Assembly: GCA_037442825.1 (NCBI GenBank)
Contig: JBBIPN010000014.1
Location: 1-24,258 of the forward strand
Source: Sulfurihydrogenibium sp.
Lineage (GTDB): Bacteria > Aquificota > Aquificia > Aquificales > Hydrogenothermaceae
DNA length: 24,258 bases
Reading direction: 5' to 3'
Shown: piece after piece, positions 21,150 through 24,258 of the stretch
Position numbering within the stretch: the stretch's first letter is position 1
Layout of the letters: every line of letters starts with the position of its first letter
Program-made: the position numbers and the translations under genes
The notes under the pieces: generated by a model
Database searches by the model: none
What the model was told of the DNA's origin: nothing
What the model saw: the letters and a program-made list of their open reading frames with translations, nothing else

Positions 21150-23390
21150 ATGTCAAAGGCAACTATATTGTGGACAAAAATCGATGAAGCTCCAGCGTTA
21201 GCAACTTATTCACTTTTACCAATCATGAGAGCATTTACAAAAGATTATGAGTTAGAGATAGAATTGAGAGATATTTCGTTAGCAGGTAGAGTTATAGCTC
21301 TATTTCCAGAATACCTAAGAGAAGACCAAAGAATATCTGATGAATTAGCTTATTTAGGAGAACTTGTTTTAAGACCTGAAGCAAACATTATTAAACTACC
21401 TAACATATCTGCATCAATTCCTCAGTTAATAGCTACAATAAAAGAACTTCAATCTCAAGGCTATAATTTACCAGACTTTCCAGAAGATCCAAAAACAGAA
21501 GAAGAAAAAGCTATTAGAGATAGATATATGAAAGCTGTAGGTTCAGTAGTTAACCCAGTTTTAAGACAAGGAAACTCTGACAGAAGATTGTCAAAATCTG
21601 TTAAAGAGTTTGCTAAGAAATATCCTCATAAAATGAAAGCTGTAAATCCAGACTCAAAGACTCATGTAGCTCATATGGTAAGTGGTGATTTTTATGAAAA
21701 TGAAAAATCAGTAACCATTAAAAAAGATACTGCAATAAGGTATGAATTTGTTGATGAAAATGGAAATGTCATAGTTTTAAAAGATAATCTTAAAGTTGGT
21801 ATTGGAGACGTAGTTGATGGTACATTTATGAGCAGAAAGAAGTTAAGAGATTTTTATGAAAAAGTATTACAGATAGCAAAAGAAGATGATATTTTATTTT
21901 CATTACACTTAAAAGCTACAATGATGAAAGTTTCAGACCCTGTAATGTTTGGAGATGCCATAAGAGTATACTTCAAAGAACTTTTTGAAAAACATGGTAA
22001 AGAGCTTGAAGAAATTGGATTTAATCCAAACAATGGATTATCAGACTTAGAAAGCAAACTTTCTAAACTACCAGAAGACAAACAAAAAGCTATTAAAGAT
22101 ACTATAGCTGAAATTTACAAAAAAAGACCAAGAATTTATATGGTAGATTCTGATAAAGGTATCACAAACTTACACAAACCAAATGATGTAATCGTTGATG
22201 CATCTGTACCAGCAATTATTAAAAATGGTTTACAAGGATGGGGGCCAAATGGTGAAGAAGATTATTGTGTAATCACAATCCCAGATAGAAACTATGTAAC
22301 TATGTACAAAGAAATAGTTGAAGACATCAAAACAAATGGGCAATTTGACCCTGTAACAGTAGGTAGTGTAGCAAACGTAGGATTAATGGCAATGGGAGCT
22401 GAAGAGTATGGTTCTCATGATAAAACATTCTTCCCACCAGCAGATGGAACTATCAGAATAGTAGACGAAGAAGGAAATGTACTAATCGAACACAAACTGG
22501 AAGCTGGTGATATATACAGAAGCTGTATTACAAGAGATATAGCAATTAGAGATTGGATAAAACTTGCAGTAAACAGAGCTAAAGAAAGTGGAGAACCTGT
22601 AGTATTCTGGTTAGATAAATACAGAGCTCACGATAGAGAACTTATAGGAAAAGTAAAAGAAGAGTTGCCAAAATACGATCTTTCTGATGTTGAGTGGTAT
22701 ATAAAAGCACCTGAAGATGCTATGAAATTTACATTAAAAAGATTTAGAGCTGGATTAAACACTATATCTGTTACAGGAAACGTTTTAAGAGACTACCTAA
22801 CAGACTTATTCCCAATTATTGAAGTTGGTACTTCTGCAAGATCTTTATCTATCGTTCCATTAATTGCAGGTGGTGGCGTATTTGAAACTGGAGCTGGTGG
22901 TTCTGCACCTAAACACGTAGAACAGTTTTTAAAAGAAGGACACTTAAGATGGGATAGCTTAGGAGAGTTTTTAGCATTTGTAGAATCATTAAAGTTAGCT
23001 TATAAACAATTAAAAACATTACACGGAAAAGATAATCCTAAAATCTTAGTTTTAGCTGAAACATTAGATCAAGCAATACAAAAATACCTTGAAAATAATA
23101 AAACTCCAGGTAGAAAAGTTGGTCAACTTGACAACAGAGGCTCTCATTTTTACCTTGCTATGTACTGGGCAGAAGCATTAGCAAACCAAAATAAAGATTC
23201 AGAACTTGCTAAAAAGTTTGAGAAAGTATTTGCAGAATTAAAACAAAATGAAGAGAAAATTTTAAAAGAAATTGCAGAAACTGAAGGAAAACCACAAGAT
23301 ATAGGTGGTTACTACCATCCAGATAATACAAAAGCTGAAAAAGCTATGAGACCAAGTGAAACATTCAACAAAATAATTGACTCAATATAA
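21150..23390 (+). CDS. icd: Monomeric NADP-dependent isocitrate dehydrogenase
   Basis: 746 aa with DEAPALAT, KLPNISAS, VNPVLRQGNSDRR, KATMMKVSDP, FETGAGGSAPKH and HLRWDSLGE motifs. Confidence 0.97.
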   Translation: MSKATILWTKIDEAPALATYSLLPIMRAFTKDYELEIELRDISLAGRVIALFPEYLREDQRISDELAYLGELVLRPEANIIKLPNISASIPQLIATIKELQSQGYNLPDFPEDPKTEEEKAIRDRYMKAVGSVVNPVLRQGNSDRRLSKSVKEFAKKYPHKMKAVNPDSKTHVAHMVSGDFYENEKSVTIKKDTAIRYEFVDENGNVIVLKDNLKVGIGDVVDGTFMSRKKLRDFYEKVLQIAKEDDILFSLHLKATMMKVSDPVMFGDAIRVYFKELFEKHGKELEEIGFNPNNGLSDLESKLSKLPEDKQKAIKDTIAEIYKKRPRIYMVDSDKGITNLHKPNDVIVDASVPAIIKNGLQGWGPNGEEDYCVITIPDRNYVTMYKEIVEDIKTNGQFDPVTVGSVANVGLMAMGAEEYGSHDKTFFPPADGTIRIVDEEGNVLIEHKLEAGDIYRSCITRDIAIRDWIKLAVNRAKESGEPVVFWLDKYRAHDRELIGKVKEELPKYDLSDVEWYIKAPEDAMKFTLKRFRAGLNTISVTGNVLRDYLTDLFPIIEVGTSARSLSIVPLIAGGGVFETGAGGSAPKHVEQFLKEGHLRWDSLGEFLAFVESLKLAYKQLKTLHGKDNPKILVLAETLDQAIQKYLENNKTPGRKVGQLDNRGSHFYLAMYWAEALANQNKDSELAKKFEKVFAELKQNEEKILKEIAETEGKPQDIGGYYHPDNTKAEKAMRPSETFNKIIDSI

Positions 23391-23411
23391 TTTAACAATC
23401 TTTCATTTCTC

Positions 23412-23451
23412 AACCCTTCCCTTAAAAATAGGGAAGGGTTTTTATTTTTTT
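23412..23451 (+). terminator. Intrinsic terminator after icd
   Basis: Perfect 11-bp stem AACCCTTCCCT (23412-23422) / AGGGAAGGGTT (23430-23440), followed by TTTATTTTTTT. Confidence 0.9.
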
Positions 23452-23455
23452 CTTA

Positions 23456-23480
23456 TAAAATAAAACAGTGTTTGATTTTT
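23456..23480. promoter_or_regulatory. Palindromic operator-like site, copy 2
   Basis: TAAAATAAAACA-G-TGTTTGATTTTT, overlapping the aclB -35. Confidence 0.65.
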
Positions 23481-23501
23481 TACTTAATAGTATGTTATAA
23501 T
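23472..23501 (+). promoter_or_regulatory. Sigma70 promoter of aclB
   Basis: TTGATT (23472-23477), 18 bp, TATAAT (23496-23501) with extended TG (23493-23494). Confidence 0.7.
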
Positions 23502-23516
23502 TTTAATCATAAAATA

Positions 23517-23581
23517 CCGCCTGCTGGGTTTTAAAGATACGGCGGAATAAAAGTAGCCCAGCCTGTAGTAAAAAACTACAG
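23517..23581 (+). ncRNA. Candidate structured 5' leader (pseudoknot plus hairpin) of aclB
   Basis: Three complementary pairs: CCGCC/GGCGG, GCTGGGTT/AGCCCAGC (crossing the first) and CTGTAGT/ACTACAG. GC-rich relative to the flanks. Confidence 0.55.
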
Positions 23582-23595
23582 ATGGAAGGGACAAA

Positions 23596-24258
23596 ATGGC
23601 ACAGAGAGGAATAAGAGAGTATGATGGAAAAAGAATTATAGCTCAAAATTGGAAAGATTACTTCCAAGATGCTTTTAACTATGAATTTAAATCTGTTTTA
23701 GTAACACCAGAGACAGATTTTGAAAAACTTCCTGAAGAATATCCTTGGTTAAAAGATACTCCATTAGTTGCAAAACCAGATATGCTTTTTGGAAAAAGGG
23801 GAAAGCTTGGATTAGTTCTTTTCAAAATTAATAAACCTGGTGATGTTACATATGAAGATGCAGTAAAATGGATTAAACAAAAAATGCAAGAAGAAGTAGA
23901 AATAAACGGTGTAAAAGGACATTTAACACATTTCCTTATAGAACCATTCGTACCTCATAAGCCAGAAGAAGAATACTATGTATCATTTTCTATGGGAGAT
24001 GATTATGATACTGTATATATGTCCGCCTTTGGTGGTATAGATGTAGAAGAAAACTGGGATAAAGTCGTAGAAGTTAAAATACCACCAACAGCATCAGATG
24101 AAGAAATTGAAAAATTAATAAAATCTAATACACCAAAAGAGATAAAAGATAAAGAAAAGTATAGTGATTTTGTAGTAAGAGCTTATAAAATGTTTAGAGA
24201 TTTACATTTTGTATACTTTGAAATAAACCCTCTTGTATTGGTTGGAAACAACGCTCAT
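23596..24258 (+). CDS. aclB: ATP citrate lyase beta subunit (3'-partial)
   Basis: Open frame to the window end: MAQRGIREYDGKR...PWL....LVAKPDMLFGKRGKLGLV...LTHFLIEPFVPH..EEYY...GGIDVEENWD...FEINPL. Confidence 0.93.
   Translation, partial: MAQRGIREYDGKRIIAQNWKDYFQDAFNYEFKSVLVTPETDFEKLPEEYPWLKDTPLVAKPDMLFGKRGKLGLVLFKINKPGDVTYEDAVKWIKQKMQEEVEINGVKGHLTHFLIEPFVPHKPEEEYYVSFSMGDDYDTVYMSAFGGIDVEENWDKVVEVKIPPTASDEEIEKLIKSNTPKEIKDKEKYSDFVVRAYKMFRDLHFVYFEINPLVLVGNNAH

Follow-up and report, generated by a model that had tools for sequence, protein, structure and literature searches.

A pseudoknotted leader of aclB in Sulfurihydrogenibium sp., probably domesticated from the right end of a TnpB-related insertion sequence

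A 24,258-nt stretch of DNA from Sulfurihydrogenibium sp. (Aquificota, family Hydrogenothermaceae; assembly GCA_037442825.1, contig JBBIPN010000014.1), hereafter the window, contains the 5' leader of aclB, the gene for the beta subunit of ATP citrate lyase. This leader carries a compact pseudoknot followed by a hairpin. It is probably a domesticated fragment of the right end of an IS200/IS605-type (TnpB-related) insertion sequence (IS), retained as a constitutive, non-sensing structural leader. The core of the motif was found in three settings: at the right ends of ISs of about 1.8 kb in this genus and in thermophilic Firmicutes, in deletion derivatives of 365–420 nt, and as standalone copies before the ribosome-binding sites (RBSs) of host genes.

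A reading of the sequence alone had described the leader as a G+C-rich H-type pseudoknot with a 1-nt L1 and an A-rich L3, followed by a hairpin, and had proposed it as a candidate cis-regulatory RNA or riboswitch of the key CO2-fixation enzyme. All strings and coordinates of this anatomy (S1, S2, L1, L3, the hairpin, the RBS and the ATG) were recovered from the sequence, as was the contrast in composition: G and C residues occupy 35 of the 74 positions over 23517–23590 vs 9 of the 76 just upstream, and the G+C content of the window is 28%. The features of the locus are as follows.

21150..23390, + strand: upstream gene, the open reading frame (ORF) of a monomeric isocitrate dehydrogenase, from the ORF list
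23412..23440, + strand: intrinsic terminator of the isocitrate dehydrogenase gene, an 11-pair stem followed by a T run (terminator scan)
23472..23501, + strand: predicted sigma-70-type promoter, with TTGATT at 23472, an 18-nt spacer and TG-TATAAT at 23496–23501 (10 of 12 matches)
23512..23564, + strand: motif core, matched by the covariance model R1 (61 bits, model positions 1–59 of 59; E 3e-10 in the genome)
23517..23521, + strand: S1 5' strand CCGCC, invariant in 72 of 73 distinct family members, with one compensatory swap
23522, + strand: L1, a single U (T in DNA); some relatives have A or G
23523..23530, + strand: S2 5' strand GCTGGGTT (RNA GCUGGGUU); all 7 modelled pairs covary
23531..23540, + strand: L2, a variable A/U-rich loop, which in long-form relatives is the site of the 3' strand of the additional helix P0, lost here
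23541..23545, + strand: S1 3' strand GGCGG, complementary to CCGCC at 23517–23521
23546..23554, + strand: L3, A-rich AATAAAAGT (RNA AAUAAAAGU); family consensus AAUAMAAAUA, nearly invariant across phyla
23555..23562, + strand: S2 3' strand AGCCCAGC, pairing with 23523–23530
23563..23581, + strand: P3 hairpin CUGUAGU-AAAAA-ACUACAG (DNA CTGTAGT-AAAAA-ACTACAG), covarying among aclB leaders
23584..23590, + strand: Shine-Dalgarno (SD) sequence GGAAGGG, in the same position as the ...ACCAGG terminus of the ISs
23596..24258, + strand: 5' part of aclB, starting with ATG at 23596, the frame being open at the window end

The terminator of the isocitrate dehydrogenase gene is the 5' limit of the aclB transcription unit. 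A transcription start near 23508 fits the sigma-70-like site, as judged by consensus match only, and TATAAT was located 15–17 nt upstream of ACCGCC in all eight aclB leaders that bear the motif. In the window, S2 consists of 8 pairs, one of them G-U, and crosses S1 in the H-type order. The terminator scan found no terminator downstream of the knot, and P3 and 2 nt lie between S2 and the SD. Single-sequence folding, which is unable to represent pseudoknots, gave a minimum free energy (MFE) of -22 kcal/mol for the leader, which exceeds chance only modestly (z = -2.0, 6 of 200 shuffles equally good).

Two public collections were scanned with the pattern ACCGCCTGCYGG, 4–30 nt, GGCGGAATAMAA, which yielded 36 genome loci and 23 metagenome loci. 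Eight of these 59 were discarded as chance matches in GC-rich coding DNA, in which the S2 3' strand was missing. The remaining 51 possessed both a complementary S2 3' strand and a downstream hairpin, neither of which was demanded by the pattern. The core shared by them reads ACCGCC-U-S2, then GGCGG-AAUAMAAAUA-S2', then the hairpin. The covariance model R1 was derived from 44 distinct cores and took S2 as its structure. Matches to it occur in 43 of the 50 family genomes, and a single genome holds as many as 20 copies (20, 10, 7 and 7 in genomes of the window's genus).

The topology proposed for the leader is supported by these relatives. In alignment A3, which comprised 79 R1 matches (73 distinct rows) and was fitted to S2 and thus favours it, each of the 7 S2 pairs varies on both strands, and pairing holds in 97.6% of cells. 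This covariation was reached by none of 500 shuffles, and slid controls pair at 24%–52%; relatives in A3 are non-independent, so the shuffle statistics overstate its significance. An independent MAFFT alignment (A2) showed the same trend, with UA 35 times and CG 9 times at pair 14-60 and no exception. In some members S2 is wholly different (GGUUCGG/CCGAACC, GCUAAAG/CUUUAGC, GCAGACC/GGUCUGC), and G-U pairs occur in A3 8 times at pair 13-68 and 14 times at pair 19-62. S1 is 100% complementary in all 73 distinct rows, and its sole variation is one C-G to G-C swap; its pairing is backed by complementarity and invariance, and as covariation it is weak. Both helices of the H-type pseudoknot, which cross one another, are thus supported. 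In longer members the sequence just 5' of the core pairs with L2 to form P0, which reaches at least 6 bp in 51 of the 53 members with an L2 of at least 15 nt. The P0 sequences are unrelated between members, and P0 is missing from the aclB leaders and other minimal forms; in the window, a P0-type helix in the L2 region is no better than chance (116 of 200 shuffles were as good). The minimal forms, with an L2 of 1–3 nt, a 5-bp S1, a 1-nt L1, a 7–8-bp S2 and a 10-nt A-rich L3, are textbook H-type pseudoknots, in which L3 probably forms a triple helix in the minor groove of S1.

The RNA had not been recognised from its sequence, and Rfam 15 likewise gave no match on the leader. No family was found at the gathering score over the whole window, and no + strand match overlapping 23508–23595 was found at E up to 10 in the region 23380–23700. 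Weak matches to the PyrG and L10 leaders were rejected as they fall on the isocitrate dehydrogenase terminator, not on the aclB leader. Nothing was found on the motif in 20 related loci (E up to 0.01), nor in a Firmicute copy, two complete IS copies and the leader of rpoA (E up to 1). The literature search revealed no description of the motif or of an IS targeting SD sequences, and nothing relevant on transposases of this genus; the supplements of omega-RNA surveys may already cover this clade.

Multi-copy relatives of the core were found in Thermovorax, Fervidicola, Thermovenabulum, Tepidanaerobacteraceae and Aquificaceae, many of them where a contig ends. At these loci the sequence upstream is conserved, and the downstream flank is unique after ...CCAGG. 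The full ORF of the Thermovorax element (487 aa) matched the NCBIfam models TIGR01765 (2.5e-25) and TIGR01766 (5.4e-18), the latter annotated as "IS200/IS605 family accessory protein TnpB-related protein". Its match to guided_TnpB (1.3e-17) was under the cut-off, Pfam gave one sub-threshold match of 28 residues to the start of the Cas12f1-like_TNB model, and a PDB sequence search with the IS protein returned only E values above 0.09. TIGR01766 genes were present in 37 of the 50 family genomes, and most R1 matches lie about 560–640 nt downstream of TIGR01766 matches on the same strand. A Y1 transposase is encoded in genome G043 and in the Thermovorax genome. Copies in two complete genomes of the window's genus have about 1.84 kb in common and end with ...(A/U)ACCAGG(T), followed by unique flanks. 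The RNA of the right end is arranged in the order of a stem-loop with the loop CUUGG or CCUGG, P0, the S1/S2/L3 core, P3, and CCAGG. The upstream loop is complementary to the terminal CCAGG; the latter is invariant, so covariation cannot speak for this pairing. The multi-copy relatives share with omega RNAs, also called right-end RNAs (reRNAs), a location at the 3' end of a tnpB-type gene and inside the right end. From its position and architecture, the IS-borne RNA appears to be the omega/reRNA scaffold of the element.

All-against-all BLAST showed that 19 of the 21 copies with a visible left end are bordered on that side by an SD-like GGAGG(T) or a near variant of it. On the other side, the start codon of an ORF of at least 60 aa lies 2–13 nt past CCAGG in 22 of the 30 loci where the motif is followed by CCAGG; among the eight misses, four are artefacts of the ORF rule, which chose a TTG within P3, and three are standalone copies that happen to be followed by CCAGG. 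Judging by the first residues of their products, the genes behind the IS copies include rpsM, rpsN, adk, trpS, lexA-like, hslU-like, rplU and atpC-like genes. The elements (copies L168–L179 and L184–L201 of genomes G041, G043, G045, G047 and G044) appear to insert in the gap separating an SD from its start codon and to supply AGG as a substitute SD. Deletion derivatives of 365–420 nt, with the left end and the right-end RNA and without tnpB, were identified in G041 (L172, L174, L175) and G045 (L184, L187), so that the copies form a decay series from full ISs through these mini-elements to leader-sized copies. Two mini-elements are located inside a ribosomal-protein operon, before genes with S13-like and S14-like product starts.

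On the evidence of an R1 score of 61 bits vs 64–72 bits for IS copies of the same genus, a shared P3 sequence and a tail in the same register, the aclB leader is a homologue of the 3' sub-module in the right-end RNA of the ISs. In same-genus IS copies P3 (CUGUAG...UACAG) occupies the same place, and on sequence grounds the hairpin of the aclB leader is taken as the counterpart of their subterminal right-end hairpin. The tail AUG-R-AAGG of the aclB leader matches UUGACCAGG of the IS. There is no tnpB at the aclB copy, the gene upstream being that of isocitrate dehydrogenase. The upstream stem-loop is absent, since the leader starts about 8 nt before the core, and the terminus is GGAAGGG, not CCAGG. 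With the stem-loop and the CCAGG terminus missing, scaffold pairing of the reRNA type cannot form in the aclB copy. Three queries gave no TnpB match in the window's genome, and two copies of the motif are nevertheless kept there. The same genome contains a broken Y1 (IS200-type) transposase fragment (G000:C9:2733-2885, L182) with one TAG and five TAA stops, left over from an IS200/IS605 element; otherwise this genome shows no TnpB. The aclB promoter was also considered as a remnant of the IS left end, with which it shares AAAACAGT and a similar -10 context. This candidate was rejected: the same promoter, with a palindrome, occurs without the knot in a sister genus, and there is no GGAGG target.

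The leader might still be a protein-binding RNA, recognised by a TnpB-family protein from elsewhere or by a host RNA-binding protein on S1/L3, which would regulate aclB, rpoA, a napA-like gene and others or would maintain the element by RNA-guided cleavage of alleles losing it. This explanation is unlikely. The sequences of S1, L1 and L3 are conserved from Aquificota to Firmicutes beyond the needs of pairing, and of the 8 other genomes in the window's genus, 7 have TIGR01766 genes. Protein-free IS200/IS605 derivatives are said often to encode omega RNAs usable by TnpB in trans (10.1101/2023.03.14.532601). On the contrary, the aclB copy has lost what scaffold pairing requires, and it is kept although no TnpB could be detected in its genome; for these two reasons we favour a role in cis that does not depend on TnpB. 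In addition, G046 keeps four R1 matches with merely a sub-threshold TnpB fragment, and no candidate host protein was identified.

AclB was found in 45 of the 50 family genomes, and the DNA upstream of the 30 best loci was read. The element precedes aclB at 8 of these 30 loci, all in the window's own genus (8 of its 9 genomes). It is missing at aclB in G042, the ninth genome of the genus, and at the 21 aclB loci of other genera; comparison of R1 matches with AclB positions also showed that they adjoin aclB in those eight genomes only. In the suggested test of covariation among aclB leaders of Hydrogenothermaceae, the element thus proved to be limited at this gene to one genus. S2 occurs as GCUGGGUU/AGCCCAGC, GCCGGAAU/AUUCCGGC or GCUGGGGU/AUCCCAGC and P3 as CUGUAGU/ACUACAG, CUGUAGC/GCUACAG, CUACAAACC/GGUUUGUAG or CUGCAAAC/GUUUGCAG, the changes being compensatory in both helices. 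L2 ranges from 3 to 14 nt, and both L2 and the flanks vary freely. The boundaries of the element are identical in all eight leaders. The 24 core positions (junction, S1, L1 and L3) have a mean identity of 93% over the 28 pairs of aclB leaders vs 52% at the four-fold degenerate sites of aclB, which indicates that the element is under purifying selection and is no neutral relic. Between clades, the core positions are 88%–100% identical vs 28%–55% at four-fold sites, which are near saturation.

These data also bear on the possibility that the leader is a neutral relic of an old insertion and that its conservation reflects recent ancestry or repeated insertion. The transposon origin is clear, and G042 and all other genera examined do without the element at aclB. 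Such a relic is nevertheless very unlikely, since the core is conserved against four-fold sites near saturation, S2 and P3 change by compensation only, with L2 and the flanks left free, identical boundaries in eight genomes argue against repeated insertion, and the copies before rpoA and the napA-like gene are kept across two and five genera, respectively.

The standalone copies lie directly before the RBSs of functionally unrelated genes: aclB, rpoA, a napA-like gene, infC, genes for DUF2173, LigB/Memo and CN hydrolase proteins, ribH, an Iso_dh gene, and genes for a pyridoxal phosphate-dependent decarboxylase, an RNR, a helix-turn-helix protein and an AAA protein. The gene lysA is also among those with a standalone motif. 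The second copy in the window's genome precedes rpoA (G000:C3:13799-13855, L148:301-357; R1 score 49.6 bits) and sits between the stop codon of an upstream ORF, probably rpsD judging only by its position in the ribosomal-protein operon, and the start of rpoA. Its P0 is short (CCCC/GGGG), its L3 is the variant UAAACAAAUA, and it is visible to the covariance model only; the DNA search with the 91-nt leader and the strict pattern find just the aclB copy. Eleven genomes from two genera share the rpoA leader copy. In five genera (g1, g3, g5, g7 and g8) the motif precedes a gene of a molybdopterin oxidoreductase with a twin-arginine translocation signal (loci L158–L160, L162, L164, L165, L132, L134–L136 and L147), which we presume to be napA-like from the N-terminal CRFCG motif; P0 is present in some of these copies (long forms) and missing from others (minimal forms). 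A copy in the infC leader was found in one further genus (L156:301-357, G049), and it contains the only S1 variant seen, GCGCC/GGCGC. The reading frame of initiation factor 3 following this copy has no canonical start codon nearby.

This mixture of genes, to which is added whatever follows each IS copy, does not form the one coherent pathway that is expected downstream of a riboswitch. Since the genes have no shared pathway and most copies reside on transposons, a ligand-specific riboswitch is unlikely. A riboswitch for a small molecule or an ion, or a thermosensor, in which the ligand would stabilise S1/L3 and thereby set whether CCGCC pairs with the SD, is on the whole highly improbable. In topology the leader is similar to preQ1-II and SAM-II (L1 of 1 nt, with L3 A-rich and S1 G-C-rich), the core nucleotides are conserved, the nested MFE structure shows weak pairing between CC.CC in S1 and GG..GG in the RBS, and a general signal (Mg2+, polyamines or temperature) could suit mixed genes. 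Against it stand the absence of an Rfam match even at E up to 10, the separation of the knot from the RBS by P3, and the fact that no anti-SD element was seen to covary; besides, the CCGCC/GGAAGGG pairing is weak, and the SD differs between copies. Of the claims of the sequence-only reading, the candidate riboswitch was thus not upheld: the downstream genes have no common pathway, and no RBS-sequestering element was seen to covary. Its broader idea of a cis-regulator stands insofar as the leader is conserved, structured and selected; dedication to the CO2-fixation enzyme does not, as the core occurs on TnpB-related IS ends and before at least 12 unrelated genes. Translational control or mRNA stabilisation, which it had also suggested, is still the most likely kind of role.

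A role at the DNA level, with single-stranded hairpins of the top strand serving the Y1 transposase and the leader being a mobilisable or transposase-bound solo right end, is scarcely credible: the ends of IS200/IS605 elements are recognised as hairpins of single-stranded DNA (10.1101/2023.03.14.532601), P3 is subterminal, and a Y1 transposase is found in G043 and, broken, in the window's genome, but the aclB copy has neither a left end nor a target motif, and every standalone copy lies inside a predicted transcript, directly before the RBS. The G-U pairs fit RNA, although G-T pairs in single-stranded DNA are possible, and the pseudoknot core is, to our knowledge, no part of transposase recognition.

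The domestication of an IS right end could have proceeded as follows. An IS would have inserted at the aclB SD in an ancestor shared by most members of the genus, and a later deletion would have taken out tnpB together with the RNA's 5' half, so that the remainder would consist of the promoter, about 8 nt, the pseudoknot, the hairpin, the SD and the ATG, as observed. The fragment would then have been kept by purifying selection with no need for TnpB. The leader would act in cis as a compact H-type pseudoknot that probably includes a triple helix. Placed at the very 5' terminus of the mRNA, the knot could shield the transcript or prevent upstream sequence from pairing with the RBS; we infer a stabiliser or an insulator.

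Several points weigh against this reading. The transcription start, the transcript itself and the effects on stability or translation rest on prediction. Classical 5'-terminal stabiliser hairpins typically have fewer unpaired nucleotides before them than the approximately 8 nt that precede the knot. The window's genome is a 137-contig draft, and multi-copy ISs often remain unassembled, so the absence of TnpB is unproven. No left-end remnant or SD-like GGAGG target was found upstream of the aclB promoter, and the same promoter is free of the knot in the sister genus; for these reasons the history of insertion and deletion is a reconstruction. The comparison is unrooted with respect to the direction of transfer, from IS to host or from a host leader captured by an IS. 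The near-invariant sequences of S1 and L3 are also expected of a protein-binding site, for which a partner in trans is possible. Finally, the nested fold suggests that the S1 5' strand CCGCC could pair with the SD instead, which leaves room for a switch.

As a tentative extension, which we consider plausible and hold with less than even confidence, a fragment of a guide-RNA scaffold may have been domesticated repeatedly as a self-sufficient, TnpB-free leader of core genes in thermophiles, with a function such as nuclease resistance of the 5' end or insulation of the RBS. The parent ISs would home to SDs and bring a replacement SD, and such insertions would be tolerable before essential genes. 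The domesticated set would include aclB, rpoA, napA-like and infC genes of Hydrogenothermaceae, with others in Firmicutes and Thermodesulfobacteriota.

Two further observations concern the aclB locus. A palindrome, AAAACA-G-TGTTT (core AAAC-N3-GTTT), at 23462–23477 of the window overlaps the -35 hexamer of aclB. The AAAC-N3-GTTT motif was also found upstream of aclB in genera g1 and g6 and in one genome of g2 (L006–L016, L018, L019 and L032), sometimes doubled, and with or without the pseudoknot. It is a candidate operator for a transcription factor controlling aclB. The last 42 aclB codons of the window (24133–24258) recur with 100% identity where another contig of the assembly begins (G000:C86:2-127); the two contigs probably overlap, and aclB carries on there.

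What was supposed to be an enzyme-specific riboswitch turns out to belong to a wider RNA module that is not in Rfam and connects the guide RNAs of transposons with leaders of host mRNAs. If the proposed domestication is true, a part of an omega-RNA scaffold has been exapted for a job unrelated to RNA-guided DNA targeting, and a small heat-stable leader element is available whose effect on mRNA life or translation is directly testable. With GGAGG(T) adjoining them on the left and AGG placed by the right end just before start codons of the host, the parent elements suggest a transposon/nuclease system with the RBS as the target-adjacent motif. For genome annotation, GC-rich pseudoknots before genes in AT-rich genomes of thermophiles may be IS footprints.

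Among known systems, the omega/reRNAs of TnpB from IS200/IS605 and IS607 elements are comparable in that the module of intact relatives lies 3' of a TnpB-related gene, ends at the transposon boundary and has a unique flank in the guide position. The reRNA scaffold is reported to contain a pseudoknot between five guide-flanking nucleotides and the apical loop of stem-loop 1 (PMC10711439), and in the ISs described here the apical loop is likewise complementary to the five nucleotides beside the guide position. The aclB copy differs in being an internal sub-module only, without tnpB, the upstream stem-loop and the CCAGG terminus. The parent protein also scores below the guided_TnpB cut-off, the RNA has no Rfam family, and its putative guide role is read from sequence. 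Protein-free IS200/IS605 derivatives, known as PATEs, are said often to encode omega RNAs (10.1101/2023.03.14.532601). The aclB copy resembles them as a deletion derivative of the same type of element, and two-ended mini-elements of 365–420 nt exist in the same genus. PATEs and miniature inverted-repeat transposable elements are defined by both ends and a target motif, whereas the aclB copy has no left end, target motif or complete right-end scaffold, and is fixed at one locus and selected, not mobile.

The small pseudoknots of preQ1-II, SAM-II and guanidine-III riboswitches and the viral triple-helix pseudoknots share with the aclB leader crossing helices, a 1-nt L1, an A-rich L3 for the minor groove of S1, and a location upstream of the RBS. 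Unlike these riboswitches, the aclB-type motif is transposon-borne, precedes mixed genes, leaves the RBS outside the knot and has no match in Rfam. As a functional analogy, the 5' hairpin of ompA, the Bacillus aprE leader, STAB-SD and exoribonuclease-resistant pseudoknots would be the nearest in placing a stable 5' structure beside a strong SD; the aclB knot, unlike them, starts about 8 nt from the predicted 5' end.

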